A program made the translations under genes and the position numbers. This document shows, piece by piece, positions 1 through 27,449 of a stretch of DNA of 42,950 bases; positions within the stretch are counted from its first letter, which is position 1, and each line of letters opens with the position of its first letter. The stretch is from the IMG/VR virus record IMGVR_UViG_2870479586_000005. One strand, written 5' to 3'. Source of the stretch: a virus. Its lineage: Duplodnaviria > Heunggongvirae > Uroviricota > Caudoviricetes. Under the pieces are notes generated by a model. The model searched no databases and was not told the DNA's origin. It saw only the letters and a list, made by a program, of their open reading frames with translations.

Positions 1-1044
1 TTACTCCAGAGACAGCCGAACCGAAAAACCGTTTTCAGCGAGCGTCAGACTCAGTGTGTTGATAGTCCAGTCCCGGTCCTCCTCGGTCCCGAATCCTTGA
101 GTTGTGACTTTGCATTCTGCTGTCAGCGACACTAAATCGAGCGTCGCTGGCGTCGTGTACGTCATAGAGAACTCTTTTTTAGCTGCACCGCCCTTGAGCC
201 CTGGTGCAGCTTCTTTCGCTGCGTCGAGCGACGGCTCAACTGCCGGCCATTCAATGACAGGATCGCCGCCACTACCTGTCCGCAATTCTTTGATCTGCCC
301 AGTTGCTGTGTCGTGATATTTAATCAGATACGTCGGTTCCGGATTTTCGCCACCGCTACCACTATCGCCACTTTGTCCATTTCTCGAATAGCCCCAGCTG
401 GAGTTATCACGACGAGTTAGCGTGTAGTGCTGGAGCGGAGCACCGCTAACAGATTCGCCCGCGCCGCGCGGCAGGAATATCCAGTACCCGCCCGCGGGTT
501 TACTCACCGCATCGAATCTCGTTGCGAGCCGCGACATCAGGTGCATATCTGACTCGCCGACCTGATCGAGTTGCGTGATAACATTGTCTGCAAACCGCTT
601 TGATACGCGTGGTTTTAGCCCATTATCGCTCGCTATTGTCGCAACGATATCGCTGACAGTGACGTCGCTCCAGGAACGAGTCTTTTTGCTCTGAACTGTC
701 GGAGATCCTTTTGCTGCGTTCATCGGAGCCGCTTTTGCTGTGAAATCAACTACCCGGGGTTCACCGCCACTGCTAGCACCGTCAACGATGTATATCCCTT
801 TATCAATTATCTGATTACCGAAACCGAGCCCAATACTGATTTTTACTCCGCGGGCCGGAATTTTCAGAGTTTCAGAAACTATTGCTACGCGGAGTTCGTC
901 TGTCTGTTTACTGGAGCCGCCGTAATCTGTCAGCGTGATATTGATCAAACCTTTTCTTATTTTATCCGTGATGTTTTTATTATCAGCAGATATATAAAAA
1001 TTAGGTTTCCACGCCTCCACGCCAGTATTTACGTAATCACTCAT
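1..1044 (-). CDS. phage tail protein D (P2 gpD-like, late control D family)
   Basis: 347-aa ORF with stop at window edge; terminal position of a P2-type tail module after U and X; family assigned from recalled resemblance only. Confidence 0.55.
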   Translation of the reverse strand: MSDYVNTGVEAWKPNFYISADNKNITDKIRKGLINITLTDYGGSSKQTDELRVAIVSETLKIPARGVKISIGLGFGNQIIDKGIYIVDGASSGGEPRVVDFTAKAAPMNAAKGSPTVQSKKTRSWSDVTVSDIVATIASDNGLKPRVSKRFADNVITQLDQVGESDMHLMSRLATRFDAVSKPAGGYWIFLPRGAGESVSGAPLQHYTLTRRDNSSWGYSRNGQSGDSGSGGENPEPTYLIKYHDTATGQIKELRTGSGGDPVIEWPAVEPSLDAAKEAAPGLKGGAAKKEFSMTYTTPATLDLVSLTAECKVTTQGFGTEEDRDWTINTLSLTLAENGFSVRLSLE

Positions 1045-1047
1045 TCA

Positions 1048-1272
1048 TCAATCCCATAATTGCGTTTCTTTTTTAACCGGCTCTGGTTCGATATCTGGTA
1101 AAACAATTTTTTCTCCAGCACGAAACACGGCACACATATCCGTTACGCCGTAATTCGAAACCTGATATAAAACAGTCTCTGTCGTTTTTGACGCTCTCCC
1201 GTAGACCGCAAGGCAGATCTGATCGAGACGGTCACCGTCCCGTGTAGTGTATGTAATCATTTGGGGCCCCAT
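1048..1272 (-). CDS. phage tail protein X (gpX-like, LysM-like)
   Basis: 74-aa ORF; GDRLDQICLAVYGR...ETVL...LPD...LWD pattern recalls P2 gpX; sits between U and D. Confidence 0.7.
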   Translation of the reverse strand: MGPQMITYTTRDGDRLDQICLAVYGRASKTTETVLYQVSNYGVTDMCAVFRAGEKIVLPDIEPEPVKKETQLWD

Positions 1273-1432
1273 TAATTAAAAGGATTTCATAATGAGAATT
1301 AATTTTAGTAGTCGGAGAGGTATTAGTATTTCGGCGTCAAAAAAAATACCATCAGGTTGTTTTACATTTATGTTCGTAGTTTTTTTATTATTTTTATACT
1401 TGTTAAGTGCTCTGGTAGCGCTTGATTTTGTA

Positions 1433-1861
1433 TTAATCTAGCGAAGCTCCATAATATTCGAGCGTGAGTGAAAAGTCCTGCGATTTAGGTGTTCCGCCCA
1501 TCAAAAAGCTGTTTTGCGTTTCAGTTAGTTCTCGCAGCACCCAGTACCCTTTCACCTCCCCGGTCCCCAGCACTAGCTGCTGGGGTTCTCCCGTGTTCCC
1601 GAGCGCTCGCAAATCTGTCAACAGGCCGACGCCGCACCCGTCAAGAAATAAAGCGTTTATCTTTCCATCGATAGTAATTGTGGGGTTCGGTCGTCCGGTT
1701 ATCTGCAACGCGTCGTTTTTCCCGAATCGTGTTTGCTGAGCCCAGCGCCAGGCGTCACTACGTTGCAGTTTGTTGTACGCTACTGTTGATATAGCAAAAA
1801 TGAAATCACCCAGGCCGAGCATGATATCCTCAGCACCGTTTATTGCATCACTCATTGTCAC
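1433..1861 (-). CDS. phage tail protein U (gpU-like)
   Basis: 142-aa ORF; LQRSDAWRWA...FLDG...DFSLTL pattern recalls P2 gpU; immediately downstream of the tape measure. Confidence 0.75.
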   Translation of the reverse strand: MTMSDAINGAEDIMLGLGDFIFAISTVAYNKLQRSDAWRWAQQTRFGKNDALQITGRPNPTITIDGKINALFLDGCGVGLLTDLRALGNTGEPQQLVLGTGEVKGYWVLRELTETQNSFLMGGTPKSQDFSLTLEYYGASLD

Positions 1862-3496
1862 CCCGCCGCCGCTGGTTTATCAAACATCGCGCCACGATTG
1901 TACGAACTCGCAGCCTGTCTCAGTCCATCGAGCACCCCCGACGCTGCAGATTGTTGTATTGACTGCGGATCTGTCGCACCGACAATATTGATTTCGATTT
2001 TATTGTTTTGCTCCGGCGCAGGTGTCGAGACTGCCTGCTTCAACGTATCAATATTTAACGTCGACGAATCCAGTGCTGCAGGCGCGGTATTTTTATTTAC
2101 CATCCCGGATAATGGATTAACAAACGCGAGCATTGATTCTGCCTGAGATTTTGCCTGTTCTTGCCGTTCTGGATGCCGCATATTTTCGACAGCCTCTTCG
2201 GCTTTTGCCTTCGCAATATTATCAGCAGTCAATCCAGCGTTCGGTGAATATTTACCTCCCGAATCCATAAACTCTTGATATGCCCGATTATATTCGTCAT
2301 TATAAGTTTTCTGTTCTTCATCTGATTTTTCATCCGGAATAAGCCACTCCAGTTTCTTTACGACAGCCCATATAATCTTCCCGAATTTGACGCAACCTTC
2401 TCCAAAATTGACGATGCCATCCCACATTTTTTTCATATTTTCTGGTTTTACCCACTCAGTAATTGTGCTGACAAAACCACCCTGATTATCCTTAAACCAG
2501 GATGTAAATGTTTCACGTACTGAGTCAAACGTCGGCGCGAGTTCCCCCCGATTTTACCGAGTGTATCTGCAAGTCCCGACGTAATAGAGCCCCACAGATT
2601 TGTCACTGATACATGCGCACGCGCCGCCCCTTCCGCACCCTCTTTTGTTAACAAATTCGACTTTTGCGCGTCAGACATTGTCTGTTCCCAGCTTTTACCC
2701 GTCGCCTTCATATACGTCATGATCTTATTAGCCTCGCCCCCATGAGCTGGTCAGCGAGGCTCGCCGCTTGCTTCTCATCTTTCATTTCAGAGATGCGACG
2801 CATAACCTCATTAAACTGTTTTTCCCGATCCCAGCCAGCCATTCGTTTTTTCGTCAGGCCAATTTGAAATAACATGGGATTCAGGCTTTTTTCGTTTCCG
2901 ATTTCGCCGATTTTATTTGTAAGTTCTTCAGACAAATCCCCGATATTTTCGCCGTTCAGGCCCGCGGCTTTACCAATATTTTCCCACGCAGCGTATTTTT
3001 CGACGCCAACGCCGTAGGACTTCGCCAGACCGAGTTTTTCTGACGTCTCTGCATTCATTGCCAGCGAACCAGCTGCAGCACCGCCAATGAGCCCTGCCGC
3101 GCCAAGTGTCCCCCATTTGATACCCCGCCCCGTAGCCCTCACCGCACCTGCGGCGGCTCGTCCGCCCCATTTTGCAGCTCCTTTTGCGCGACCCGTCCAC
3201 TTCTCCAGCCGCTGTTTTTTAGCAAGTTGAGTATTCAGCGCCTCCTGGTCCTGCGTTGTCGCTTTTATCCGACGGTCCAGCTTTTGATACTGAGCAGATA
3301 AATCAGAAACGTCTTTACCTGCCAGTTTCATTGCTGCGATTTTGTCTTTTAATTTATCCTGACTTTTCGTTAATTTCCCGACAGTAGACGACGTCTGCCG
3401 AATCGCATCATTGAGTTCTGTTGTACCGCGACGAAACGACGGGTCTATTCGCCCACCGAATACAACCTGCGTTTTAAAGTTTTGAGAAATAGCCAT
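1858..3496 (-). CDS. tail tape measure protein (gpT-like), interrupted by two apparent 1-nt frameshifts
   Basis: Three consecutive minus-strand ORFs (2717-3496, 2448-2720, 1858-2436) with coiled-coil, Gly/Ala-rich tape-measure character; frames rejoin if one base is added in the C5 run at 2737-2741 and in the C6 run at 2544-2549. Confidence 0.7.
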
Positions 3497-3604
3497 CGAT
3501 TTTCATGACCTCGTTTACATAGAAATTAAAAACCCGGTACGGCAGGTCCATTTGCGTATCGGGCGGGATGGCAAGTTTTTTCGCAATAAACGGAATCAGA
3601 ATAA

Positions 3605-3886
3605 CTATATCTGATGTCGGTCTTTCGGGGGCTTTACCAGTTCGTTAAACGCGGCCTCCATTTGATCGTAATCGCACGCAGGCAGTGCATATAAATCCTC
3701 ACGCTCCAGATTTGCCAGGCGCGCCAGCATTGTCGCTGTCCGCTCTTCAAGACCACTTTTATCGTTACTGAACATAATGCGGTCGCGTAATTTTGGTTCG
3801 CGAATAGTAATTGTATCGCGGCTCTCACCCTTAATAATAAACGGGCGAGAGAGCGTAATAGTCATACTGTCTAATAATGATTCCAT
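3605..3886 (-). CDS. tail assembly chaperone (gpE-like)
   Basis: 93-aa ORF between tube and tape measure genes, the conserved chaperone position; no in-frame slippery heptamer found for an E-prime product. Confidence 0.45.
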   Translation of the reverse strand: MESLLDSMTITLSRPFIIKGESRDTITIREPKLRDRIMFSNDKSGLEERTATMLARLANLEREDLYALPACDYDQMEAAFNELVKPPKDRHQI

Positions 3887-3898
3887 TTTATTTGCCTT

Positions 3899-4411
3899 TT
3901 AATATACATGGAGAATACGAGCAACGCCCGCAAGAACGTCAACACCATTAATTACTCGTTTCATTTTTGCAGGATGAATCTCGTAAATAACTTTTCCATT
4001 TTGAACTCGTTTATAATAGCTCGGCGCAATCGTTACTGATTGCCCAACTGCTGATTTTGAATCAGTCCCCTGCGCGTCATCAGTAATCGCCGTAATAAGC
4101 CCCTCATATGTATCAATACGTTCAAAATTGACACCGTAATTGTCAGTATATGCACTTCGAATTTCGAACCTTGTTTTAGCACCTGGTATTAATCCAAAAT
4201 ACCCCATCACACCAGAATCGGAGCCAGAGACTTTAAAACTGGCTGACATTTTCTCCATCCCCCCATCCAGAGTGATAGCTGTATCCATCGCGCCTGTTTT
4301 AAACTCGTCTTCGATTATTTTCATATCGACTGGAGTATATTCAGTACAATTTAAAACCCGTTCGCCCTGCACGAATAGCGCAAACGCGCGGTAAGCGTTG
4401 CTGTCTGACAT
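3899..4411 (-). CDS. contractile tail tube protein (P2 FII-like)
   Basis: 170-aa ORF directly downstream of the sheath gene; C-terminal INGVDVLAG recalls P2 FII. Confidence 0.7.
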   Translation of the reverse strand: MSDSNAYRAFALFVQGERVLNCTEYTPVDMKIIEDEFKTGAMDTAITLDGGMEKMSASFKVSGSDSGVMGYFGLIPGAKTRFEIRSAYTDNYGVNFERIDTYEGLITAITDDAQGTDSKSAVGQSVTIAPSYYKRVQNGKVIYEIHPAKMKRVINGVDVLAGVARILHVY

Positions 4412-4428
4412 ATTTAATCTCCGAATTA

Positions 4429-5930
4429 TCAGGCTGCTTCTTTAAAAAGGGAGGCCAGTGCTTCAACTGTATAGTCATTATTAATGCGGTACATTAACGT
4501 AATTGTTTGTGCCGGAGATTTCGGACCAAAATCAACATTAATATAAAGATTACCCGCAGCCAGGCTTTCTTTTGTATTCAGCTCACTGTCTAACCACGCA
4601 CGCCCTCCGTTAATCGCACCCTGCTCCTCTAATTTGTGCAGATATGCGTTTATCGACTCGACAACGTCTGTTCCGAGGTGCAGGTCTATCGGACGATCAA
4701 TAAAATCGGTCATCATTGCCCGGGCTATAGAATCCTCAATTACGTCAGCTGTTCGACGAACGCTCTCGAAAGACCATTGCGGGCTGAGGCTGCACAAATA
4801 GTTACCCCAGTGTCTGAACCCGTCATAGCGAATAATCGTGCTGACCTGGCTGGCATTCAGCAGGTTCGCTGTGCAGTTTGTCTCACCAATAATAAAATCG
4901 TCGACTTGTTCAAGCCCTGTAACTCCGTAGATATTCTGGTTCGATTTACTCCACCAGAATCCTTTTTCATTATCAATTCGGGCTCGTAAACCAGCAGCGA
5001 TAGCTGAATACGGACGAGATAACCCACTGACATCACTCGTAGAATAAACGCGAGGTCGCAACAACTCAGCGCGTCCGCCGAGTTTTTGCCTGCGATTCAC
5101 AACGTCTGCAGGGGTAGCAGCGCGCGGAGAGTCGATATAACACACTCCCCGGAGTTTATTTGCAACCACTTCAAGCTGAGCCGCTATTTCGTCTCGTGCG
5201 CTGTAATCCGGCGCTATAATAATTCGCGGGGTAACTTCGTTAATTTGCGCTGACGTCAAAAGCGAATTAATTCCGGCGATAACATTTTCGCTCATATCAG
5301 CGTCGTCGCTACTCTCTACAACGCGAACAACAACGATTAATGCATCAGTCTGATTTAAAATATCAGAAATAGCGGGGGGCAGAGTCCCGTATTTCCCGAG
5401 CAGGGCGGCTTTCTTCTGACTACCTGCAATTAATACAGGAGAATTAATCGGGAATGCGTCATCCGTTCCACCTGATAAATTTGTAGGTGGAAGACCAAAT
5501 ACTGTACCGGTTCCGGAATGCTCGCCACCAAAAGTTACATTAATCCACTCTCCGTCTGTTTTCCCCTCTCTATATTCCTGATTCTGATCATACATTTTGC
5601 CGGGGTCATTCCCGGCTCCGTAATCATCGTTAATTTTTTTGTTCCGTCGGGCAGCGTGCTATATCCTGGAGTGCAGGTTGCGCCCTCAACTGTCATATCT
5701 ACAATTTCAACAACCCATTTATTCCCGTCGCTGCCCGGTGATACAGTTGAAAACTCAACGAGATTATCAGCCAGCGATGAGCCCCACGTTAATGATGCTC
5801 TCGTAGCCTCCGCGACGTTCGTCGCAGTACCAACAATCCCAATCACGGAAATATCTACTGTGTTGATCTCTTTTGTGCCGTCGTCGTATTCGAGCGTGCG
5901 AATACCGTGCAAAAAATTAGTTACGCTCAT
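4429..5930 (-). CDS. contractile tail sheath protein (P2 FI-like), split across two frames at a T7/A7 run
   Basis: ORF 5535-5930 begins with a sheath-like N-terminus (MSVTNFLHGIRTLEYDDGTKEINTVDISVIGIVGTA); ORF 4429-5595 carries the rest (FPINSPVLIAG...IIRYDGFRHWGN...LYINVDF); frames join with one extra base in the run at 5634-5640. Confidence 0.75.
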
Positions 5931-6316
5931 TTTATTCCTTCTCTATTTTCACCAATTCGCGTCGCTATTGCTTCTTTAAGCTCGGCCAAGTTTTCGATTT
6001 GCGCGTCAGATGCGGTTCCGGCATCTACTGCACACTGAATTGAGAATGCCTCAATTGACAGATCGCCAACAGTCCGTAATGTAGTCTGGAGTTTTTGCGT
6101 CTGCTCTTTTTTTACAAATTTAGAAATGCTCCCATAATCCCCGCTCAGCGCTCTTTCATATAAAACCCTACCGTGTTCCTCGCAATCATTTTTCATTGCG
6201 GTGAATGGAATGTCGTTTCCAATCCCGTCAATATCGCAAATAATATTTATAGATAACCCATGCTCGTCATTAAAAACAGGGTTTGTTATTTTTCTAAATG
6301 AATCAACACTTATCAT
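5927..6316 (-). CDS. tail fiber assembly chaperone (gpG/Tfa-like)
   Basis: 129-aa ORF immediately downstream of the tail fiber gene with 1-nt overlap. Confidence 0.5.
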   Translation of the reverse strand: MISVDSFRKITNPVFNDEHGLSINIICDIDGIGNDIPFTAMKNDCEEHGRVLYERALSGDYGSISKFVKKEQTQKLQTTLRTVGDLSIEAFSIQCAVDAGTASDAQIENLAELKEAIATRIGENREGIK

Positions 6317-7500
6317 TACGCAATCCTAATAGCTAAAAAACAGGCAGTCCCAATATCACCGACTCCACCTGGTGAATACGCCATAGCTCGCCATGAGCCA
6401 ACAAGTGGTGTGTCATAAAATGGTTTTGTGGCAATATCCGTGTTATATGAACCGGTATTATTTATACTAGCGTAATATAAATCACCTCCAGCCCATATGG
6501 AGCCCGGGAGTATTTGGGGTGCATGATTAATAGCGACAAGCGCATAAGTATTAACCGCGCCAACAACACCTATTTCCGGTGATGGGTCCGGTGAAAGACT
6601 TATATCTATGTTGCCATTTTCATCCGGCGACTCCCCGTTAATCGTTTTAACCGGTTTAAGATTAGCCTCATTCCAGTATTTATACGTCCGTCCGCCACAC
6701 AGTAATACCAGGCCATCATAGTGAACTCCGCGTAATCTATAAAAAACCTTCTGATTGTTTTCTCCACGGGTCGAAAAATCTAAATAATCGCCCGACACAT
6801 CTGATAAACCAGCAAGTGAAAACAACGTCAAATCAGTGCCCGGTTTGTTTATATTTATTTGTTTTTTAGAGGATAAAACGTCTTCAAAAATCACATCATC
6901 TTTAAAAGTATTTGGATGAGTAAATGCATTACCCTTATCTCTATATGCAACGTCCCCATCTATACCAATATTTTTCCGCGCAGCCTGCTGAGCAGTATCA
7001 CCATTTGCGGAAATTTCAGATAAGTTTTTACTTATCTGCAAATATTTTTTGTCAGCTTCCTCGGGAGTTACGTAGTTGTCATATACTACAACATTAACCG
7101 TAGATGTGCTGGACACCGCGAGGGTGTATTTATACGTGATTGAAATCAGCGCGCCGTTGCTGTCCGTGGGTTTTAAAATATCCGGCGAACGCGCTACAGA
7201 GTACAGTTCACCTTTATCTGTCAGTATTCCCACTTCGCGGATAGTATAGCCGCCGGTTTCCGGTGGTACGTATAGCGTAAAAATAACCTGATTACCGCTA
7301 TTTTCTGACGATTTAATATCACCGCGATACGTCTCGTGAATTAATGCTGTTCGTGCAGGGTCTGGTGTTACATCGTCGTTTCCGTTCGCGTCACCGATAA
7401 CAAATTTGTTCAGCACCACTGGAACGCCTGACGCCAGGGCGGCGGCCTCGAGTTGTGCGCCACGGTCTGTCAGTACTGCGTAAATTTTATTTTCAGCCAT
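6316..7500 (-). CDS. tail fiber protein (gpH-like N-terminal domain)
   Basis: 394-aa ORF; N-terminus (RTALIHETYRGD...YTIREVGILTDKGELYSVA) recalls the conserved N-terminal domain of P2 H; follows baseplate gene I. Confidence 0.7.
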   Translation of the reverse strand: MAENKIYAVLTDRGAQLEAAALASGVPVVLNKFVIGDANGNDDVTPDPARTALIHETYRGDIKSSENSGNQVIFTLYVPPETGGYTIREVGILTDKGELYSVARSPDILKPTDSNGALISITYKYTLAVSSTSTVNVVVYDNYVTPEEADKKYLQISKNLSEISANGDTAQQAARKNIGIDGDVAYRDKGNAFTHPNTFKDDVIFEDVLSSKKQININKPGTDLTLFSLAGLSDVSGDYLDFSTRGENNQKVFYRLRGVHYDGLVLLCGGRTYKYWNEANLKPVKTINGESPDENGNIDISLSPDPSPEIGVVGAVNTYALVAINHAPQILPGSIWAGGDLYYASINNTGSYNTDIATKPFYDTPLVGSWRAMAYSPGGVGDIGTACFLAIRIA

Positions 7501-8119
7501 TTGGCCCTATCTCCACATTTAAACTAACAATTGGTGAGCCCGATATATATAGCCCGCCGTTAATTTTTACACCGCCGTCGCCGTCTGCTGGGACGTTTAC
7601 GCCTATTTTCGCGTAAGGTGTACCGGCTATAAAAAACTCACCATCGACACCCGTTTCGAAATTTATTTCCTTTAATAATGAACGACAATTTTTTGCATCA
7701 AATATTTGCGCTATAAATGTATTCAATAGCTCTAAATCTAACCCTATACTTTTTAGCAGATATATTTTAATTGCGAATGTATACGGGTCGTCCCTGGGCG
7801 TGGCTTCAAACCACTCTCTCATTTTGCTCTCAAATCCCACCGTTAATAATGCTCGTTCGACGGCACCACGCGTGCCGCGATGTTTATTTTGCCAGGCTGC
7901 GGCCTTAATAATTTCGCGTTTTTGCTGCTCGCTCCAGTCGGGGTTCCAGTAGGTGACCGCGTACTCCCACGCCAGCCACGGCAACAGATTTGCAGGGCAC
8001 AAATCGGGATTTTTAATAATTCGAATATCGCCAGGCAGATCGCCGACGTGAGATAAAACAACCTCAAGCGCCCTCTCAGGGGTTATTGCGTTCGGAGGCA
8101 GTACGCTTTGACTTGTCAT
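7493..8119 (-). CDS. baseplate/tail protein I (gpI-like)
   Basis: 208-aa ORF between J and the fiber gene, as in the P2 V-W-J-I-H order. Confidence 0.6.
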   Translation of the reverse strand: MTSQSVLPPNAITPERALEVVLSHVGDLPGDIRIIKNPDLCPANLLPWLAWEYAVTYWNPDWSEQQKREIIKAAAWQNKHRGTRGAVERALLTVGFESKMREWFEATPRDDPYTFAIKIYLLKSIGLDLELLNTFIAQIFDAKNCRSLLKEINFETGVDGEFFIAGTPYAKIGVNVPADGDGGVKINGGLYISGSPIVSLNVEIGPNG

Positions 8120-8121
8120 GG

Positions 8122-10801: not shown

Positions 10802-11100
10802 AATCGTTTACCTGTTTTTGGGTCTACGTGGACATTACCTTTCACGCGACCGCGCAAATCTTTCTCAAAAAAGCCCATAAAAACAGGGCCAATGTTTTCA
10901 AAAATATAATCATCGATAGCATCCTCCAGCGCGTCGTGCACAGGTACGCGAGCCTCTTCGATTCCTCCGCGATCCAGTCGAATCCAGACACTTTTCGCAC
11001 CGTAGCGTTTCGCTACGAATGAATCGGGCCAACTCATCATCGCCAGCCCTGCACTTTTGGGTGTAAAAGTTGCCCCTCTAGCGCCTTTTTTGGTTTTCAA
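10798..11100 (-). CDS. hypothetical virion protein (TTG start; may be 3' part of a frameshifted gene with 11214-11477)
   Basis: 100-aa ORF; its reading frame stays open upstream to about 11245 and can be joined to the 87-aa ORF by a 1-nt change near 11230-11240. Confidence 0.3.
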   Translation of the reverse strand: MKTKKGARGATFTPKSAGLAMMSWPDSFVAKRYGAKSVWIRLDRGGIEEARVPVHDALEDAIDDYIFENIGPVFMGFFEKDLRGRVKGNVHVDPKTGKRL

Positions 11101-11213
11101 AAACAGGCCGGTCTCAGGATCGCGAGGCTGTTTTTGCCTCCGTGGATTTTGTAATCGCCCCTTTAGCTCAGATACCCGGAAATCATTCAGACCGTACCAG
11201 AGCTTGGCGCTGC

Positions 11214-11477
11214 TCAGGTCTCCTGCCCTTCTTTTGTAAAATTACGGCGCTTAATGAACGGCTTGATTCGTTTATCTACGGCCTTATGATTTTTAGCTGC
11301 CAGTGCAGTCAAAATCATTCCTGCTGAAATTCGGTGCATATGTTTTGCAGTTCGGTTCAGCGCCCTGTTGTATACCATTAACATTTGATGTTGCGTCGCG
11401 CTGATTTCGACTCTGAGCTGCTCCAGCGCCGAAACATCGATATCGAACATCTGCGCGTTACTACGTAAATCGGCCAC
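11214..11477 (-). CDS. hypothetical virion protein
   Basis: 87-aa ORF downstream of the FII-like gene. Confidence 0.3.
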   Translation of the reverse strand: MADLRSNAQMFDIDVSALEQLRVEISATQHQMLMVYNRALNRTAKHMHRISAGMILTALAAKNHKAVDKRIKPFIKRRNFTKEGQET

Positions 11478-11508
11478 GGTTCCCCCTTAAGTGGGACCGA
11501 GGTCCCAC

Positions 11509-11889
11509 TTAGTATTTTGAATACTCGCTGTTTTCGCTGGACGTGTGAGGCTCTAAAAAAATATTCGTGAGCCCTGTGCCATCAGGTTGAGGCTCTTTAA
11601 CCACGTAATCGGTCCAGCCAGACCAGGTAACAGAGCCGTCAGGTTCGATGCTGCGCTGCTTTGGAACCTGGACGACGTCACGCGCAACAACGCCAGCGAC
11701 GTCGTCCGAGAGCGCCGTCAGGCTCGTTACTGTACCGGTAATAAAACCAGCGTGAGGAACGTCAACGCGCGCGTAAGGCTCGTTGAAAATAGCGATAATG
11801 GGGTCGGTTTTACCGCGTAATTTAACGGGCCGTCCCCACTCACGGATCATCTCCTCGTCGCCGGCCCGGAGGTCATCGTAGTAGCTCAT
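11509..11889 (-). CDS. head-tail connector / head completion protein (lambda FII-like)
   Basis: 126-aa ORF directly after the FI-like gene, in lambda head-gene order. Confidence 0.45.
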   Translation of the reverse strand: MSYYDDLRAGDEEMIREWGRPVKLRGKTDPIIAIFNEPYARVDVPHAGFITGTVTSLTALSDDVAGVVARDVVQVPKQRSIEPDGSVTWSGWTDYVVKEPQPDGTGLTNIFLEPHTSSENSEYSKY

Positions 11890-12305
11890 AGAGCGTAAAC
11901 GTGATCAGCTGCGATAAGGTCTGCGACCTCCGGTGAATCAACAACAATTTCACGGCCTGCGGCAACAATCTCGCGAACGCGACGCCCGTTCACGTAGTGA
12001 TAAACGTCCAGCGTGTTACGCAACTTGACGCGGCGCGTAGCCGGTGCGAGCTCCTGCTCTTGTGACTGTGAAACGATAGCGCTCGCGATTGATTGAGCGA
12101 GTTCATTATCGGTCCCGGACGCAGTATTCACTGTAATCTCGATGCCTCCCGCGTCACCGGATTGCTCGTTCAGAATATCGAGCTCTGACTCAGCGCCGGC
12201 AACGATTGATTCCAGTTCCGCAATAGTCCCGCTGCGCGGTAATTCGCGACCGAGCTGAGCGCTCAGATCGTCAATACGCGCCAGCAATTCTGTTTTTGTG
12301 CTCAT
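11886..12305 (-). CDS. DNA packaging protein (lambda FI-like)
   Basis: 139-aa ORF; N-terminus MSTKTELLARIDDLSAQLGRELPRSGT recalls lambda FI; follows the major capsid gene. Confidence 0.6.
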   Translation of the reverse strand: MSTKTELLARIDDLSAQLGRELPRSGTIAELESIVAGAESELDILNEQSGDAGGIEITVNTASGTDNELAQSIASAIVSQSQEQELAPATRRVKLRNTLDVYHYVNGRRVREIVAAGREIVVDSPEVADLIAADHVYAL

Positions 12306-12339
12306 GTTGATTCCTTAACAAAAAAGAGCCTTTCGACTC

Positions 12340-13374
12340 TTACGCGATTTTTACGACAACGAACGCGTCGGCGTCCGTGAGGACCATTGCTGGCGCGGAT
12401 TGCGTCATTGTTTGCGTCACTGCCGGATCACCGGTAGTGGTCCAGACTTTTGGATAGCGCGTCGCTTCGGAAATACCCTCTTTCAGCGCGTCTTCGTCCT
12501 GAATTGCGCCATAAGTGCGGAGCCCGCGGTTTTTTGTGTTGCCAAGGATCATCGTGTTATCCGGCATATAACGCGTTTCAGTGTCTGTTACCGGGTCGAG
12601 GTATTGCCCTTTGTAGACAAACAGCGCAGTGTCGCCGTAGTAGCCTTTAAAGCTGACAACGTCGCCCAGGTTTTTCAGCGCGACCTCGAGCTGGCTGTTT
12701 GAGCCACGGCGCGTATCCAGTGCCGTCCAGAATTTTTTAAAACGCTTCAACTGCTTCCAGGCTTTACCATCCATGATGATCACGTTAACAGCACCGGAGG
12801 CGAGGTCTGCATAGGATTCGATATCGTCGCTCGGGTCATACGTTTCCGCGTCCTGCGTAGACCAGGCTGTCGAACCAGACTGAGTGACGTTATTCGTCGC
12901 GCTGCGGCTCATGTCGATCTCATAGGTCTCGATATTGCTGCCGGAAACTGTGTATTTACCGTACAGAACCGCCTGCACAGCCTGAAATTCTTCGAGCTGG
13001 CTGATGCTCAGTTCCTCATCGAGCAAGTTCTGCATGATGATTTTTGCACGACGTTCGACCGGTGTTTCCGGCTGGCCAATCTGCTCTCCGGCGGCGCGCT
13101 TGATGCTCATATTCGGATTGATCGTGTGTTTGGGTTTCGTGTAACCCGGCTTAAAATGGTTAGTTGAATAGCCGCGGGTGCGATCTACTTTGCCGGTGAT
13201 CATCGGCGCGCAATACACCGCCATATTGACCTTACCCGGGATTTTATCCAGAAAAACCTCTTCGCTCGTAAACGTGTAGGTCTCACGGAAAAACAGTCTT
13301 AAAAACAACGAATTGAACTTAAATACCTGCTGTGTCGCGGTAATCAATTCTGACGTAGTAAACGAATCGCTCAT
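12340..13374 (-). CDS. major capsid protein (lambda gpE-like)
   Basis: 344-aa ORF; long colinear resemblance to lambda E (FKFNSLFLRLFFRETYTFT..., RGLRTYGAIQD..., YPKVWTTTGDPA...). Confidence 0.9.
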   Translation of the reverse strand: MSDSFTTSELITATQQVFKFNSLFLRLFFRETYTFTSEEVFLDKIPGKVNMAVYCAPMITGKVDRTRGYSTNHFKPGYTKPKHTINPNMSIKRAAGEQIGQPETPVERRAKIIMQNLLDEELSISQLEEFQAVQAVLYGKYTVSGSNIETYEIDMSRSATNNVTQSGSTAWSTQDAETYDPSDDIESYADLASGAVNVIIMDGKAWKQLKRFKKFWTALDTRRGSNSQLEVALKNLGDVVSFKGYYGDTALFVYKGQYLDPVTDTETRYMPDNTMILGNTKNRGLRTYGAIQDEDALKEGISEATRYPKVWTTTGDPAVTQTMTQSAPAMVLTDADAFVVVKIA

Positions 13375-13432
13375 TTATATATCCTGTTATAAAAAAACCG
13401 CCCGGAGGCGGCTTGTTTTGAGTTTTTTGCTA

Positions 13433-13762
13433 TCAGCCGACGCTGATCGGCGTACCCGCAAATGCTGATTTGCGTTTAGCTACGTCGGTAACCGTACCCC
13501 AGTTAATCGCCGTGTAACGGAACGAGCCTGATTTATAGTACGAGCAGTCTGCAGAACTGGAGCCAGTATTAACTGCGGTGGCAGTGAGGCCAATAGCTTT
13601 ACCGACTGAGCCGTCCCAAACCTTAAACGTCCCGACAGTAGCGTCGAGCATAATCGGTGTCAGCCGGGGTACGTTGATCCCGCCCTGAAAATGACCGACG
13701 GTCGTGACAACAAGGTCAGGCCCAAGAATAAAATCGTCCGGGCTATACGTTTCTGTAGTCAT
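13433..13762 (-). CDS. head decoration protein (lambda gpD-like)
   Basis: 109-aa ORF; YYKSGSFRY...KRKSAFAGTPISV recalls lambda D. Confidence 0.8.
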   Translation of the reverse strand: MTTETYSPDDFILGPDLVVTTVGHFQGGINVPRLTPIMLDATVGTFKVWDGSVGKAIGLTATAVNTGSSSADCSYYKSGSFRYTAINWGTVTDVAKRKSAFAGTPISVG

Positions 13763-15069
13763 TATTCATCCCCTAAAATTGAACGCCCTGCAGCAACCAG
13801 CATCGAGACGTTTGCGGTTGTTCCTGTTGCCGTAGTACTGCCAGCATCCTGAATAGTCGCTGGTGATTCAGTGCTCATTAGTGTATCGAGCGCCGTTTCT
13901 GTCCGCGCCTGCGCCGTTTTAGGTGCTGCAGCGAGGACTACCTGCGCCTGCCCGACCGTCATCCCGGGGACGCCAGCGAGCGCTTTTGCCTGCGCCTCGC
14001 GCCCAACAGCTTCGGGACAATTGATGATGGCCATCACACGCGCCAGTTCGCTTGATGCGGCGTCCGCGCGAATCTGCTCCGTGTTAAACTCAACCTGCGC
14101 GACAGTAGTCGTGGTCGCGGTTTGTTCTGTGGTCGTGGTCTCCGCCGTGGTTTCTGTACCAGACATAAAGCGCTCCATTTTTGGTTTCAGTGCGTCGGCC
14201 ATCACTGCGATAGCGTCCGCGTAATTAACGAGTTGATCAGCGAGACCAGATTTAATCGCGTCCGCGCCGATAAATACTGCAGCTTCCGTGGCCAGCACCC
14301 TGGATTTTTTCAGCCCGGTATAATCCGAGACTTTTTGCGCGAACTGCTCGCGCGTGCTGTTAATACTCAGCTGGAATTCGTCGCGAACGTCGCCTGGCAG
14401 CTGGGAATACGGGTTCCCGTCAACTTTGTGCGCGCCGGCGTAAATCAGCGTCACGTCGACGCCAGCAATCTCCAGCGCTTTTTCGACGCAGCGGTGAGCC
14501 ATCAGGACACCGATTGAACCAACTGTGCCTGTCTGCGTTATCAGCCGGCGCGAACACGCTGACGCCAGCAAATAGGCAGCGCTGCAGGCCGTATCGCTGG
14601 CCAGCGCCCACACAGGTTTTTGCTCTCGCGCCCGGGCGATTAAATCAGCAGTATCAAACGCGCCGGCGACTTCACCGCCAGGGGAGTCAATATCAAGCAG
14701 GACCCCTCTTACATCGGGATCAGAAATCGCCTGCTGCAGGCGTTTTGCGATTCCGTCGTAACCGCTCATCCCGCTAACTGGGTTGATATAACCCAATTTA
14801 TGAACCAGCGTCCCGGTAACCGGCAGAACGGCTATACCACGCTCCACGCGATACGATTTCTGGCGTGTTCGCTCGCTGCTGTCCCACCCCATCGCGAGCG
14901 CGTTCATTTCGTCGCTGTTCATTACCTCTCCAGACGCTGTATCAATCAGTCGCCCGGTACCGAACCGGTCGCTCAGCGCCGAAAAAAATACCCGCGCGTA
15001 GGTGGGCTCCAGCAAAAGCGGTTGATTGAACGCCCTGGCGGCGAGGTGCGGAAAATTGTTCCACGGCAT
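13762..15069 (-). CDS. head maturation protease / scaffold (lambda gpC-like, S49 peptidase family)
   Basis: 435-aa ORF between portal and decoration genes; ClpP/S49-like core with Ala/Thr-rich C-terminal scaffold-like region. Confidence 0.8.
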   Translation of the reverse strand: MPWNNFPHLAARAFNQPLLLEPTYARVFFSALSDRFGTGRLIDTASGEVMNSDEMNALAMGWDSSERTRQKSYRVERGIAVLPVTGTLVHKLGYINPVSGMSGYDGIAKRLQQAISDPDVRGVLLDIDSPGGEVAGAFDTADLIARAREQKPVWALASDTACSAAYLLASACSRRLITQTGTVGSIGVLMAHRCVEKALEIAGVDVTLIYAGAHKVDGNPYSQLPGDVRDEFQLSINSTREQFAQKVSDYTGLKKSRVLATEAAVFIGADAIKSGLADQLVNYADAIAVMADALKPKMERFMSGTETTAETTTTEQTATTTTVAQVEFNTEQIRADAASSELARVMAIINCPEAVGREAQAKALAGVPGMTVGQAQVVLAAAPKTAQARTETALDTLMSTESPATIQDAGSTTATGTTANVSMLVAAGRSILGDE

Positions 15070-16643
15070 CAGTTACCTCCCCAGCCGTTATCGTTGGTAT
15101 TTGAGGGGTGAGATACAGACCATGACGGTTCGCTCAGCCCCATTTCACGCCGGCGCTGAATTTCGTATTCCTGCTGCTCCATAACCTCCTCGTAATCCTG
15201 TCCCTGCAGCGCCAGTTCGTTCTGATACGTGCTGAGGCCAGTTGTGATGCGCATGGCGCTCTCCTGAACCTCTTTCAGCCCATCAATCGCCATGCGACCA
15301 GCGCCGATCCAGAGCGCGTTCGTCCAGGAGTTCCGCGCCTCATAAAACGACCGGACAGCTGAGCGTGGCAGGGTGATAATTCCGCGTGCCAGCGCCTCTT
15401 CAAACCAGCAGCAGAACATCAGCGACGCCTGTCGCGCGGCGATAAAACGTCGACGCCCCATGAAAAATCGCCAGCTGACGTTAGCACTGGCCCGGGCGCT
15501 GGAGTAACTGACCTGGCTGTAGTCCCGGCTAAGTTCTTCGTATGACGCGCCAACGCCAGCTGCAACGTAACGCAGGAGTGATTTTTCCAGTGAACTAAAA
15601 CCAGCATCAGCATTCTGAGCGGTCTGTAAACTGAGTTTGTCGCCGGGATGCAGGTGGGGAACTTTCACACCACCGAGCTTGATATTTGCGCCGTTGTAGT
15701 ACGTCACGTAACTCTGAATAAACGAATTCAGCGGGTTCGAGTCGATATCAGTACCCGCGCCGGCGATATATTCAAACGCCTGCTGGCTGTCGAGCTCTGA
15801 TTCGATTGTCGCGGCATACATCGCCTTCACAATGGCGCTCTGCAGTTGTGTTTGCTGCAGTGTGTCGAGCATTTTCAGGCGCTCCATGACGCTGTAAAAA
15901 ATATTGTCCCCGCGGGTCTGTCCGTCCTCGAGCGGCTCGAATATGTGGATGAATGCGTGTCTGCCGCTGCTGAGCTGTGCTGGGATACGCCGGCATTTAC
16001 CGACTCCGCCGAGAGGGTAAGTATCCTCGGCTATCCAGTACCCGACCGCGGCCCCGTTTTTATCGATATCAACACCGGCGCGGCGAAATTGAGTGTCAGC
16101 TGCGTAACCCGGATTTCGAATCCGTTTCGGTGAGACCATTTTGAATCGCGTCCGAAAAACGCTGCCGGCACTACTCTCCCATACTGGTTGTACGCAGGTT
16201 TCACCGTTGAAAGCGTGAGTAGCCACGCCCTCGCGGATCATCATTGTGAACGTCCGTTTCCGCTCGATATCAATCGTGCAGTGAGGGTCCTCGGCGTATT
16301 CAGTCCACGCTACCTCGACGTCACGCGCCAGCGCCCTGGCGTCCTCGCGAGATATGCCGAGGTAACGCCAGTTAGGGCGATAACTCAACTTAAACAGATT
16401 GCCGACGATATGATCCTGGTGCAGCTGCACGGCGTTCGACGCGACGCCGTTATTGCGAACGAGATCGTCTGCTCGCGCGTTACCGCGATAAAAATTCGGC
16501 AACAGTGCTGCGTCGGCGCTCTGCTGTGGTGCGTTCCAGTCAATCAGCTGGCCACCGAAACCGGGACCGCCGCCGTTATACCCCGCGTAACGGCGTAGTG
16601 GCGTTTTACCGTCAGGCCCGAGCAGCTGCTGCGGAGCAGTCAT
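15069..16643 (-). CDS. portal protein (lambda gpB-like)
   Basis: 524-aa ORF; extensive resemblance to lambda B (LLGPDG...YAGY.GGG.GFGGQL..., FTMMIREGVA.HAFNGE, QSAIVKAMYAATIESELD, WIGAGRMAIDGLKEVQE). Confidence 0.9.
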   Translation of the reverse strand: MTAPQQLLGPDGKTPLRRYAGYNGGGPGFGGQLIDWNAPQQSADAALLPNFYRGNARADDLVRNNGVASNAVQLHQDHIVGNLFKLSYRPNWRYLGISREDARALARDVEVAWTEYAEDPHCTIDIERKRTFTMMIREGVATHAFNGETCVQPVWESSAGSVFRTRFKMVSPKRIRNPGYAADTQFRRAGVDIDKNGAAVGYWIAEDTYPLGGVGKCRRIPAQLSSGRHAFIHIFEPLEDGQTRGDNIFYSVMERLKMLDTLQQTQLQSAIVKAMYAATIESELDSQQAFEYIAGAGTDIDSNPLNSFIQSYVTYYNGANIKLGGVKVPHLHPGDKLSLQTAQNADAGFSSLEKSLLRYVAAGVGASYEELSRDYSQVSYSSARASANVSWRFFMGRRRFIAARQASLMFCCWFEEALARGIITLPRSAVRSFYEARNSWTNALWIGAGRMAIDGLKEVQESAMRITTGLSTYQNELALQGQDYEEVMEQQEYEIQRRREMGLSEPSWSVSHPSNTNDNGWGGN

Positions 16644-16873
16644 AATCGAACTCCCACGGGCCGACGGCGTCCCGTACTCAGACCGAGCTGTGATTTCAGC
16701 TCGATAATGTACGTTCGGAGCTGCTCAATACTCGCCTGCGAGTATTGATAGCTCCGGTTATTTCCTGCTGAATCGCCGTGAGACAGCGACACGGTCGATT
16801 TACCCGTTAATAATTTGTGCAGAGCGATTTCCGCTTCCAGCAGTCGTTCTGTTAAAACCTCGCGCGACGTCAT
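16640..16873 (-). CDS. head-tail joining protein (lambda gpW-like)
   Basis: 77-aa ORF between terminase and portal genes; coupled overlaps with both. Confidence 0.75.
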   Translation of the reverse strand: MTSREVLTERLLEAEIALHKLLTGKSTVSLSHGDSAGNNRSYQYSQASIEQLRTYIIELKSQLGLSTGRRRPVGVRL

Positions 16874-18834
16874 TAGCTCCCTCCGAGCATTCTGGCCATC
16901 TCCTCGAGAGACAGTTTGTTTTGTGATTTTTTCCGTTGCTCAGCGAGCGTCTCGAGATTGAGCTGGAAACGAATTTTACTGATACGCAGCGCTGCCAGTC
17001 CGTACACCCAGCAGTCGAGCGCCTCATTTCGCCGGCCCTGGTTGTCCCAACGATAAACGACGCGACCGTTAATGAGTTTCGGGATCAGAACCTCGGAGAC
17101 GAGCTGTTTTGCCTCTGTCGTGCTGAATATTTCGTCGTCGTTGGGAAAATGAATCGCACCTGGTGTCGCCGATTTGGAGTCGGGTTCCAGCTGCAGGCGC
17201 ATTGCGAGCAGGTCTTTCGCTGTATCTGTCCCAATCAACGACAAATACACTTTATTCGCGTTACGGGTACGAGGCATATTTACGACCGGCTGGCCGTATG
17301 AGCTCGCACCCTTGATTGGAATGACCCACAGCGGACCGAGTTTCAGCGAGCGGTTATAAACGACCTGCGCATCTATGCCGCCGGTATCCCACGCCCAGCG
17401 ACTGACGCCGATTGTGGTCCCGTCGCTGCGCCGGTATTGTTTGCGAATCACGCCGTCGACGCGCTGCAGCGTATCCTCCTCGTCGTAGCGACCGAGGACG
17501 ATTGTTTTATCAATCAGCCAGCACTCCTCCTCGGCTCCCCAGCCCCACACGTAACACTCGTAGCGCCCGGACGTCTGAGAGTCGATGCCGCCGGTTATAT
17601 AAACAACACCGTCAGGAACCTGGCTGGCGTATCTTTCCCGGCGATTAACGAGAATATCGTGTTCCAGCTGCTCGCTGGCCACTTCGCTCCAGAGTTCGCC
17701 GAGCGTAGTGTTATGAAACGTTTTTTCTTTGAGTGGTTCGCCCTTCGCTTTCAGCCACTCGCTGACAATCTCGCCCCAGCCGTCGAGATTCAGTGAATAC
17801 AGGGCGTTTATCACGATCGCCGCGTGTTTCGGCGCGCGAACGACGCCACCGTCATGATCAAAAAAATGGATTCCGTCTCGGGTCCAGGTGCAGTCCTCGG
17901 CTATCCAGCGCCCCCCGAGCTCCATTTTTTCGAGATCGCGATAGTAAAAATGCTCCGGGCAGTGGCAGCACTGGTAATACGCGGACGACGATTTCGACTC
18001 GTTGGTCTGCAGGCTGTCATCCCACTTGAGACCGTATTCGATACCGTCGAAACCAAATACCAGGGTCTGCTCCTCGCTACAATGCGGACACTTCAGGTAA
18101 AAACGAAATGTCAGATCAGCAGCGTCTTCCAACATTTCGATATGACTTTTACCGGTGACTGTCGGTGTCGAACCGAAAATCGCCTTCGGGTACGCTGCCC
18201 CTTTAATTCGAACGAGCGCCAGTTCGATGGGCGAGCCCTCGCCTTTGCCTTTTTTGGCAACTTCCAGCGGCCAGCCGTCAACTTCGTCACCCTCGACAAC
18301 CTGTTTCGTTAGTCGCCGGAAATTTCCTGGCGTACTCGCGCCGCGAAAATCAATAATCGCGCCGTTCATTTCTTTACGCTGGAGATTGTTACGCTCGTTG
18401 CTTTTATCCCAGTCGGGGAAAATTTTCTGAATCACCGGCATTTCGGCGATAGCGGGGTCAACCTCATCGGCGACAAATCCATCCGATTCGTCATCGATAG
18501 GCTGATAGACCACGGCACTACGTTTTTTGTGCTCAGCGAAATAGAGCAGCGCCGCGACGAGTATTTTTGTATAACCGAGACGAGCTGATTTGCGAACAGA
18601 CACGATTTTTATCGCGTCGTTAGTCATCATATTGAGCATCACTACCTGGACCGGCTGAGTCGTCCAGTGGCCAGCGATGTGGCTGGAGCCCTCAGGGAGA
18701 TAAAAATATTTATCAGCCCACTTAACCCCCGTCATCGGTATCGTCACGCGCAAGGGATTCAACCCTGTCGAGATCGCGTTCGATATCGCTGACATCGTAA
18801 TCGCTGAAATCGACTCGTATGTCTGCCAGTTCAT
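16873..18834 (-). CDS. terminase large subunit (lambda gpA-like)
   Basis: 653-aa ORF; resemblance to lambda A including CPHC...C motif, GIDSQ and ALDC motifs; true start probably downstream of 18834 since the ORF overlaps the small-subunit gene by about 110 bp. Confidence 0.9.
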   Translation of the reverse strand: MNWQTYESISAITMSAISNAISTGLNPLRVTIPMTGVKWADKYFYLPEGSSHIAGHWTTQPVQVVMLNMMTNDAIKIVSVRKSARLGYTKILVAALLYFAEHKKRSAVVYQPIDDESDGFVADEVDPAIAEMPVIQKIFPDWDKSNERNNLQRKEMNGAIIDFRGASTPGNFRRLTKQVVEGDEVDGWPLEVAKKGKGEGSPIELALVRIKGAAYPKAIFGSTPTVTGKSHIEMLEDAADLTFRFYLKCPHCSEEQTLVFGFDGIEYGLKWDDSLQTNESKSSSAYYQCCHCPEHFYYRDLEKMELGGRWIAEDCTWTRDGIHFFDHDGGVVRAPKHAAIVINALYSLNLDGWGEIVSEWLKAKGEPLKEKTFHNTTLGELWSEVASEQLEHDILVNRRERYASQVPDGVVYITGGIDSQTSGRYECYVWGWGAEEECWLIDKTIVLGRYDEEDTLQRVDGVIRKQYRRSDGTTIGVSRWAWDTGGIDAQVVYNRSLKLGPLWVIPIKGASSYGQPVVNMPRTRNANKVYLSLIGTDTAKDLLAMRLQLEPDSKSATPGAIHFPNDDEIFSTTEAKQLVSEVLIPKLINGRVVYRWDNQGRRNEALDCWVYGLAALRISKIRFQLNLETLAEQRKKSQNKLSLEEMARMLGGS

Positions 18835-19288
18835 TCAGGGCTATCGCCAGCTCCTCTCGTAATACACTGCTCGCCTCCTGCGGCATTTCAGGCCACACCT
18901 TTTTCAATCGTGGTGGCCACGACTCGACGCGGGTACGTAATTCAACGGCGACGCGAGATACAGCAACGCTAATTAATTCAATTGGCGCGTAGCGTTTAGC
19001 GAGAATGCGGCGTTTTACTCGTGCCATCAGGATTCGCTCCTGTCGTTCCTCATTTTTCAGCCACTGCTCGCGATTTTTTTCGGGAGAATTGTCCCCCACT
19101 TCCGGTTCGTCAGTACCAATTGTGTCGCGTCTATTACTCCGGAGATAATGAATATAAAAATGGCGCCAGGCATCAAGGTCCCAATCGCCACGTCCCTGTG
19201 GGACTGGAGCTCCCGGAAGTTTTGCGAGATCGCGCAGACGACGATCAGATAGCAGTAAATGTGCTGCGACCTCAGCCTGACTTGCCAT
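18722..19288 (-). CDS. terminase small subunit (lambda Nu1-like)
   Basis: 188-aa ORF immediately upstream of the large subunit; N-terminal HTH-like segment. Confidence 0.65.
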   Translation of the reverse strand: MASQAEVAAHLLLSDRRLRDLAKLPGAPVPQGRGDWDLDAWRHFYIHYLRSNRRDTIGTDEPEVGDNSPEKNREQWLKNEERQERILMARVKRRILAKRYAPIELISVAVSRVAVELRTRVESWPPRLKKVWPEMPQEASSVLREELAIALNELADIRVDFSDYDVSDIERDLDRVESLARDDTDDGG

Positions 19289-25470: not shown

Positions 25471-25479
25471 CGCTTTAGA

Positions 25480-27391: not shown

Positions 27392-27449
27392 TCCCTTTTA
27401 ATAAGATACTAAAAGTAAAAGCGCATTATAGCATAACACATACAATGCG

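Follow-up and report, generated by a model that had tools for sequence, protein, structure and literature searches.

A lambda-type head and a P2/R-pyocin-like contractile tail in a lambdoid Escherichia coli prophage that probably belongs to an old chimeric lineage

How does a virus come to carry lambda-like head genes in front of a P2-like contractile tail, and what joins the two? The question is raised by a 42,950-nucleotide stretch of Caudoviricetes DNA (IMG/VR record IMGVR_UViG_2870479586_000005; hereafter, the window), whose positions 1–19288 had been read in an earlier note as a mosaic of both virion types, with unassigned junction genes that might be adaptors between them. We consider it probable (roughly 85%) that this region holds the whole set of virion-assembly genes in the late operon of an E. 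coli prophage, a temperate lambdoid myovirus, and that its architecture is that of an old and widespread chimeric lineage, not a new recombinant. The remainder of the window is lambdoid, with an integrase, cI/cro, a DnaB-type helicase, Q, holins and an endolysin, and no part of the window yielded a tRNA gene.

Read from 19288 to 1, the region encodes lambda-family packaging and head genes followed by a P2-family contractile tail, all on the minus strand, contiguous and overlapping (Table 1). Pfam and BLASTP assigned 22 of the 24 genes to families, and the assignment of the other two (the tape measure and a 129-amino-acid (aa) fibre-associated gene) rests on PHROGs. Profile searches of the proteins, which the earlier note had proposed as a check, upheld the lambda-head/P2-tail reading for every assigned gene. 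The order A-W-B-C-D-E-FI-FII, preceded by a small terminase subunit that is probably of Nu1 type, was confirmed by Pfam, PHROGs and BLASTP against lambda; A, B, E and D, whose resemblance to lambda had been described earlier as strong, are 40–64% identical to their lambda counterparts by BLASTP. All eight genes from gpA to gpFII scored above the curated Pfam cut-off, seven of them (A, W, B, C, D, E and FI) at 32–64% identity to lambda; FII was assigned through Pfam and phrog_82. The large terminase subunit carries the gpA ATPase and nuclease domains by Pfam. The small subunit falls in phrog_57, as does lambda Nu1, with a BLASTP E value of 0.017 against Nu1 and no Pfam match. The P2 capsid and packaging genes Q, P, O, N, M and L had no match in the window or in 29 related loci, and matches to lambda cosN did not rise above chance level, none of them falling in 19289–19700.

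Table 1. Genes of the virion block of the window, in the order in which they are read (19288 to 1)
Feature	Position	Strand	Evidence and remarks
Terminase small subunit, probably lambda Nu1-type	18722–19288	-	phrog_57 (E 1.3e-39, full length); 46% identity to Vibrio phage Valp1 TerS
Terminase large subunit, gpA type	16873–18834	-	PF05876 and PF20454; 42% identity to lambda A over 651 aa, 59% to Valp1
gpW head-tail adaptor	16640–16873	-	PF02831 (6e-16); 35% identity to lambda W
Portal, lambda family	15069–16643	-	PF05136 (7.7e-91); 64% identity to lambda B
Head protease/scaffold, gpC-type, S49	13762–15069	-	PF01343; 55% identity to lambda C over 409 aa
Head decoration protein D	13433–13762	-	PF02924; 40% identity to lambda D
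Major capsid protein E	12340–13374	-	PF03864 (2e-59); 56% identity to lambda E
DNA packaging chaperone FI	11886–12305	-	PF14000; phrog_92; 32% identity to lambda FI
Head closure/tail attachment protein FII	11509–11889	-	PF05354 (2.8e-11); phrog_82, also the PHROG of lambda FII
Tail completion protein, lambda gpZ type	10798–11477	-	Intact 226 aa, here split at 11226; gpZ PHROG and Pfam bridging, HK97-gp10 fold
Tail (tube and sheath) terminator, pyocin R2 collar PA0615 type	10265–10801	-	178 aa; sequence match to PA0615, terminator fold
Baseplate spike gpV	9383–10299	-	Intact 300 aa, split at 9982; PF04717; 35% identity to P2 V
Baseplate wedge gpW/gp25	9039–9428	-	PF04965; 37% identity to P2 W
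Baseplate protein J	8122–9042	-	PF04865; 41% identity to P2 J
Baseplate/tail protein I	7493–8119	-	PF09684 (4e-37); 34% identity to P2 I
Tail fibre, P2 H-type N-terminal domain and unrelated C-terminal part	6316–7500	-	PF12571 (residues 4–139); 33% identity to P2 H over 115 aa
Fibre-associated protein, 129 aa, at P2 G position	5927–6316	-	phrog_1795 ('tail fiber protein'), N-terminal part only
Tail sheath	4429–5930	-	Intact 500 aa, split at 5602; PF04984 and PF17482; 35% identity to P2 FI
Tail tube	3899–4411	-	PF04985 (8e-23); 31% identity to P2 FII
Tail assembly chaperone E (3605–3886) with open -1 frame E' extension to 3474	3474–3886	-	PF10109
Tape measure	1858–3496	-	Intact 546 aa, split at 2737 and 2544; position, length, phrog_3654 (4e-262), 35% identity to Valp1 homologue
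gpU	1433–1861	-	PF06995 (3e-31); 35% identity to P2 U
Tail protein X, LysM-like	1048–1272	-	PF05489; 40% identity to P2 X
gpD baseplate hub	1–1044	-	phrog_52 (3e-94); 26% identity to P2 D over 370 aa

In the tail, the P2 families V, W, J, I, the N-terminal domain of H, the FI sheath, the FII tube, E, U, X and D are all present (Pfam, BLASTP and PHROGs), whereas the gene taken for G is unlike P2 gpG and the order U-X-D is not that of P2, in which X stands beside the lysis genes, far from U and D. The P2 proteins gpR, gpS and gpG showed no similarity in the window by BLASTP or profile search, and the 129-aa gene, which has no Pfam match, was ruled out as a G homologue by its lack of similarity to gpG. 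The sheath is longer than that of P2 (500 versus 396 aa) and the tape measure shorter (546 versus 815 aa). The U-X-D order is of the R-pyocin/phiCTX type, and the gene order of the pyocin R2 cassette (PA0615–PA0628) is established; in that cassette a terminator homologous to the one found here, PA0615, directly precedes gpV, as it does in the window. The order from the terminator through V to U-X-D fits the R-pyocin cassette better than P2. Counterparts of the non-contractile tail genes of lambda (U, V, G/T, H, M, L, K, I and J) are absent from the window, none matching any window protein by BLASTP or tblastn.

At the junction (10265–11477), the earlier note had counted three open reading frames (ORFs), left them unassigned and suggested that they might be siphovirus-head/myovirus-tail adaptors. 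There are two genes, since a 1-bp deletion divides what is a single 226-aa gene into ORFs 11214–11477 and 10798–11100, and both can be assigned through PHROGs, Pfam, the match to PA0615 and folds. The 226-aa protein belongs to the gpZ/HK97 gp10-like tail completion proteins by both sequence family and fold, and the 178-aa protein has a terminator fold, resembles the Mu terminator and lambda gpU in structure, and lies between the neck and tail genes; the fold comparison proposed earlier as a check on the junction proteins gave an HK97-gp10 fold for the former and a terminator fold for the latter. The window proteins fall in phrog_1072 (terminator) and phrog_27, whereas P2 R and S fall in phrog_65 and phrog_26 and the lambda terminator in phrog_37. 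Profiles of the two junction families matched neither the single sequences of lambda gpZ, lambda gpU, P2 gpR and P2 gpS (hhalign) nor any of the lambda and P2 virion proteins (hmmsearch), and a PDB profile search with the Z-like family gave no match; the evidence for the gpZ link therefore consists of PHROG and Pfam bridging and the fold. The terminator link was drawn from PHROGs, Pfam bridging, a PDB profile search and the fold; a profile search of genome contigs with the terminator, in which few patterns matched, returned one locus, in Escherichia whittamii. The notion of special adaptors is unsupported: a gpZ-type protein and a terminator are canonical neck components needed by every long-tailed phage, and they stand in the order FII-Z-terminator-V in every relative examined. 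Both genes are labelled 'hypothetical' in deposited relatives (RefSeq and GenBank) and can now be given functions, the 226-aa gene in tail completion (gpZ-type) and the 178-aa gene as a tail terminator of the PA0615 type.

Close relatives of the block are common. Escherichia phages vB_EcoM-705R4, -720R5, -569R10 and -783R5 (ON470624 and others) and an E. coli prophage adjoining yecA share its gene order and 96.9–99.3% nucleotide identity over 19.3 kb; the 'phage' records at 97% identity include the host gene yecA and may therefore be prophage regions. Among 5,426 complete E. coli genomes, the head block occurs in 443 and the tail block in 453, with ST131 among the carriers. Lambda/P2 chimeras have already been described (PMC3235987, PMC2771037, PMC10612066). 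Wolbachia WO, Xylella XfP1/XfP2, VHML/phiHAP-1/VP882 (Hapunavirus), Vibrio phage Valp1 and the Iiscvirinae (Jilinvirus: Arya, ep3 and ECO1230-10) share with the window a head module with gpA terminase and lambda-family portal, after which come FII, a Z-like protein, a terminator and then the P2-type series V-W-J-I...sheath-tube-E-T-U-X-D (PMC3235987, PMC2771037), at only 20–59% sequence identity to the window. They differ in that protease and capsid are fused in one gene in VP882 and Jilinvirus where the window has separate C, D and E, in that Valp1 and VP882 encode ParA-type partition proteins where the window encodes an integrase, and in the lytic growth of the jilinviruses. The order FII-Z-terminator-V recurs in Valp1, Arya, VP882 and 29 of 29 IMG/VR loci, and this constancy indicates an old established lineage rather than a new junction. 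The chimeric design has been known for more than 20 years, and the block is an ordinary, common E. coli prophage module that does not change current understanding.

The boundary between the head and tail modules is the 3' end of FII, as indicated by a step in GC3 (0.60 in FII, 0.43–0.50 in the next gene) and by the breakpoint with a related viral contig (L025), which has the tail in common from the FII 3' end onward but a different head, and with which nucleotide similarity begins at 11589. Judged by such comparisons of sequence, the head and tail blocks are exchangeable modules; one tail behind two head types provides a clean illustration of modular phage evolution. A further reading, which we regard as unlikely and put forward only tentatively, is that FII and the two junction proteins (Z-type completion protein, PA0615-type terminator) constitute a conserved and portable 'neck interface', through which one contractile tail could receive, by recombination at the FII 3' end, at least two kinds of lambda-family head (with separate C-D-E or with a ClpP-capsid fusion). 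If so, the FII–terminator contact would be a generic docking standard for siphovirus and myovirus tails, and could be used to engineer head/tail chimeras.

With homology, gene order, fold, the FII 3' boundary and the genomic linkage of both blocks as our data, the lambda and P2/R-pyocin model systems suggest by analogy how the particle may be assembled. An upstream Q-type antiterminator would yield one long minus-strand transcript. The head would be built in lambda style, with Nu1/gpA packaging DNA, gpB as the portal, gpC as protease and scaffold, gpE as the shell, gpD as decoration and gpFI as a packaging aid, after which gpW and gpFII would close the portal. The tail would be assembled separately in P2/R-pyocin style: a baseplate would form from V-W-J-I and the hub proteins D-U-X, the tape measure T would act with the chaperones E/E', and the tube and sheath would then polymerize. 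The 178-aa terminator would cap the tube and sheath and the gpZ-type protein would complete the tail, and the finished tail may then dock onto gpFII through the terminator ring.

Whether this copy could make such a particle depends on five one-base contractions of G/C runs, which interrupt Z, V, the sheath and, twice, the tape measure (positions in Table 1). If real, these frameshifts would leave the window copy unable to make tails, as expected of a defective prophage remnant that is dead or kept only for its cargo genes; this we consider improbable. Five frameshifts in four essential tail-pathway genes, further frameshifts in the holin/Q region of the window and single pseudogenes in some relatives (the portal gene of strain A42 and Q of strain 22KM0354) would fit such decay. 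However, every virion-region indel is a one-base contraction of a G/C run, a pattern typical of homopolymer consensus errors, and premature stops, deletions and other signs of decay are absent. None of the indels is shared with the relatives compared (three E. coli and E. whittamii; four of four lack all of them), and Z, V, the sheath and the tape measure are intact in strains A42 and 22KM0354 and in phage 705R4. Given their absence from all four relatives, the virion-region frameshifts are probably sequencing errors, and apparent pseudogenes in the window should be treated with the same caution, as most likely homopolymer errors.

An established lineage is also favoured over a recent one-off cross in which a lambda-like siphovirus of E. 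coli recombined with a P2-like myovirus and the junction ORFs were newly recruited as special adaptors, a scenario that we judge highly improbable. Such an event could account for the GC3 step of about 0.1–0.15 at the FII–Z border and for the portal, C and E being 55–64% identical to lambda as against only 33–48% to Valp1, and head swaps do occur in the group. The tail proteins, however, are only 26–41% identical to P2 and closer to Valp1 (36–52%), the P2 R and S genes are absent, and DNA similarity to P2 and lambda is limited to about 150 bp of the portal gene. Moreover, distant phages, among them those of Vibrio, Enterobacter, Pseudomonas and Burkholderia, carry the junction families at this same position, and Wolbachia WO already lists a 'minor tail protein Z' between its head genes and baseplate V (PMC3235987).

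That lambdoid head genes merely lie beside an independent R-type tailocin cluster is scarcely credible: although the genes from the terminator to D are collinear with the structural genes of pyocin R2, PA0615–PA0628 (PMC11871291), the gene ends overlap at both Z–terminator and terminator–V on a single strand throughout, no lysis or regulatory genes intervene between the blocks, gpZ and FII, required only for head joining, are present, and the two blocks co-occur at nearly equal counts across genomes (443 versus 453).

Some details of the tail genes complete the annotation. ORF 9943–10299 is the N-terminus of the 300-aa gpV and not a separate gene. The E' extension comprises 46 codons, the -1 frame being open from the end of E to just beyond the start of the tape measure, and no canonical slippery heptamer was identified in the E/E' region. 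The gpD stop codon occupies window positions 1–3, and a gpD relative carries the RefSeq label 'VgrG/Pvc8 family'. The 129-aa gene at the G position is the most variable among relatives (28–100% identity).

The virion block (19288 to 1) carries every long ORF on the minus strand, closely packed. The earlier note had read it as lambda-type head genes followed by a P2-type contractile tail, and profile searches of the proteins bore this out, assigning the head to lambda families and the tail to P2 families; the finding is real and was correctly read at this level. The upstream genes matched the Pfam families gpA ATPase and nuclease, gpW, lambda-family portal, S49 peptidase, head decoration D, capsid E, FI and FII, with 32–64% identity to lambda (A, W, B, C, D, E and FI; Table). 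The small terminase had no match in the Pfam search and matched phrog_57, which also holds lambda Nu1, over its full length. The downstream genes belong to the P2 tail families V, W/gp25, J, I, H (N-terminal domain), sheath, tube, E chaperone, U, X and D, with 26–41% identity to P2 (BLASTP). A 46-codon open −1 frame after gene E, ending just inside the tape measure gene, appears to be the expected E/E′ arrangement. Terminator-like hairpins with T-runs directly follow D and E; they may increase the expression of these two genes, by attenuation or by stabilising the mRNA. Alignments of relatives break at 7484–7500, at the start of tail fibre gene H, where their gene is 27 bp (9 codons) longer (403 aa versus 394 aa); within the block, variation is greatest in the fibre C terminus and the next gene (129 aa), at 28–100% identity among relatives.

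Features of the window, with protein and structural matches
Feature	Coordinates	Remark
A		42% identity to lambda (BLASTP)
W		35% identity to lambda (BLASTP)
B		64% identity to lambda (BLASTP)
C		55% identity to lambda (BLASTP)
D		40% identity to lambda (BLASTP)
E		56% identity to lambda (BLASTP)
FI		32% identity to lambda (BLASTP)
Hairpin after D	13395–13414	minus strand
Hairpin after capsid gene E	12324–12341	minus strand
226-aa gene	10798–11477	gpZ-type
178-aa gene	10265–10801	terminator
Phage Mu terminator		match to 178-aa model, 14.5
PA0615		match to 178-aa model, 13.9
Lambda gpU		match to 178-aa model, 12.7
T5 p142		match to 178-aa model, 11.9
T4 gp15		match to 178-aa model, 9.4
Low-GC island	24982–28942	GC 0.34–0.42
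ImmA/IrrE (CapP-like) metallopeptidase	24982–25470	in low-GC island
DUF2971 protein	27863–28942	matches PADLOC candidate defence family PDC-S31, E 1e-50
cI-like repressor and P22-Cro-type gene		lambdoid backbone
DnaB-type helicase		lambdoid backbone
Integrase	41904–42950	far end of window

Alignment of the window to the 99% identical E. coli A42 prophage and a 97% identical deposited phage showed that a G or C run is one base shorter in the window at 2544, 2737, 5602, 9982, 11226, 21255, 21328 and 21514; each contraction disrupts a gene or reduces an intergenic run. Among the virion genes, the tape measure falls into three ORFs, and the sheath, gpV and one junction gene into two each. All five virion-gene contractions are absent from a second 99% identical relative (which also lacks the three upstream ones) and from a 92% identical Escherichia whittamii prophage. 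The window could conceivably be a genuinely defective prophage copy with real frameshifts; given that all eight indels are contractions, all homopolymeric and all private to the window among the relatives compared, long-read consensus errors are the most likely explanation. With such errors in the window, ORF calls elsewhere in it may also be affected, a warning that we add here. As one contraction falls in the junction region, the three junction ORFs described previously reduce to two genes, ORF 9943–10299 being the N terminus of the 300-aa gpV.

These two genes, annotated as hypothetical, had been left unassigned, perhaps as adaptors between a siphovirus-type head and a myovirus-type tail; we assign functions to both. 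The 226-aa protein, studied in its intact form through an exact homologue, is a gpZ-type tail completion protein. It had no match itself in the Pfam search and matched phrog_27 (4e-43), which holds lambda gpZ (P2 gpS is in phrog_26). Of 30 members of the family (38% identity or more), 3 reached Pfam Minor_tail_Z (best, 2e-12), lambda gpZ as query retrieved a member of the family (P0038, 3.7e-7), and Foldseek against viral models returned ‘minor tail protein’ and HK97-gp10 entries. In lambda, tails require gpZ to yield infectious particles. The 178-aa protein is a PA0615-type tail terminator. It falls in phrog_1072 (labelled ‘unknown function’), as do Arya gp10 and Valp1 gp58 at the same genome position; its family profile matched the pyocin R2 collar PA0615 over nearly the full length (E 1.6e-6), and its predicted model (pLDDT 76) matched terminators (Table). 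The family comprises approximately 270 cluster representatives among 1.84 billion proteins. Family and fold evidence thus identify two standard tail-end components, and novel adaptors were rejected. Lambda gpU caps the tube and its surface is bound by gpFII, and the pyocin R2 collar caps both tube and sheath; by analogy, the head–tail joint here is likely to be FII docked on the 178-aa terminator ring.

By family, the block is lambda-type through Z and P2/R-pyocin-type from the terminator; by history, the module boundary lies one gene earlier, between FII and the Z-like gene, a position that this analysis adds. GC3 is 0.54–0.63 from TerL to FII and 0.35–0.54 from the Z-like gene on. Moreover, the related IMG/VR contig L025 (IMGVR_UViG_2529293142_000021) aligns with the window at 71–77% nucleotide identity over the stretch that begins at 11589, in the 3′ part of FII, and runs through gpD, with no nucleotide similarity upstream of 11589. 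Its head belongs to another lambdoid type (DUF1441 small terminase, gpA, lambda-family portal, ClpP–capsid fusion, cement protein and an FII of its own), and the sequence comparison shows a clear natural head swap (L025, 1–9300) with its breakpoint at the FII 3′ end. The GC3 step and this breakpoint indicate that the Z-like gene and terminator travel with the tail, consistent with heads and tails being assembled along separate pathways. Three further contigs (L036–L038) likewise carry the same contractile tail type behind a different lambdoid head with DUF1441 TerS, a ClpP–capsid fusion and a cement protein. A more distant IMG/VR subgroup (L031–L036 and L038) has its gpU homologue between the terminator and gpV, not beside X and D. 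The 31-bp FII/Z-like gap contains, exactly at the boundary, a perfect palindrome with an 11-bp stem (11487–11512), approximately 22 bp of which are missing from the E. whittamii relative; it may serve as an attenuator or stabilise RNA, or may be the scar of a recombination event.

This prophage type is already known and very common. Among 5,426 complete E. coli genomes, the head block was present (≥80% coverage) in 443 and the tail block in 453, including ST131, and the two are linked in E. coli. The order FII, Z-like, terminator, V, W, J, I was found in all 29 IMG/VR loci gathered with the terminator profile; lambda tail genes, P2 head genes and P2 R/S were found in none of them. The same gene order occurs in Enterobacter phage Arya (Jilinvirus) and VP882 (Hapunavirus), and Vibrio phage Valp1 shares the FII–Z-like–terminator–V order and has separate C, D and E, as in the window, whose tail proteins are nearer to Valp1 (36–52%) than to P2. 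Lambda/P2 chimeric phages have been described (Wolbachia WO and Xylella XfP1/XfP2), and in the WORiC gene list a ‘minor tail protein Z’ already separates the head genes from baseplate V (PMC3235987). For HAP1-like viruses, the tail operons V and F are noted to be all that is shared with P2 (PMC2771037); the P2 tail module is described as having ‘exchanged relatively liberally’ into phages outside the P2 group, VHML among them (PMC10612066); and the Iiscvirinae, a known group of myoviruses with small genomes, have relatives among E. coli prophages (PMC11990801). Four deposited ‘phage’ records show 97% identity. That of vB_EcoM-705R4 (ON470624.1), a ‘complete genome’ of only 27 kb, opens with the host gene yecA (1–666), and appears to be a partial prophage region, not a packaged genome.

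In relatives, the Q antiterminator, two holins and the endolysin lie directly upstream of the terminase genes; beyond the end of gpD, related E. coli chromosomes carry one small lipoprotein gene (phrog_890) and then yecA–tyrP. From these flanks, the block is approximately the entire virion-gene portion of the late operon. Outside the block, the window has the backbone of a lambdoid prophage, with a low-GC island between the Q region and the replication genes that is probably anti-phage cargo (Table). CRISPR spacers in several E. coli genomes match the window at 100% at 8120–8155 (the I/J gene junction) and in the portal gene (15383–15417).
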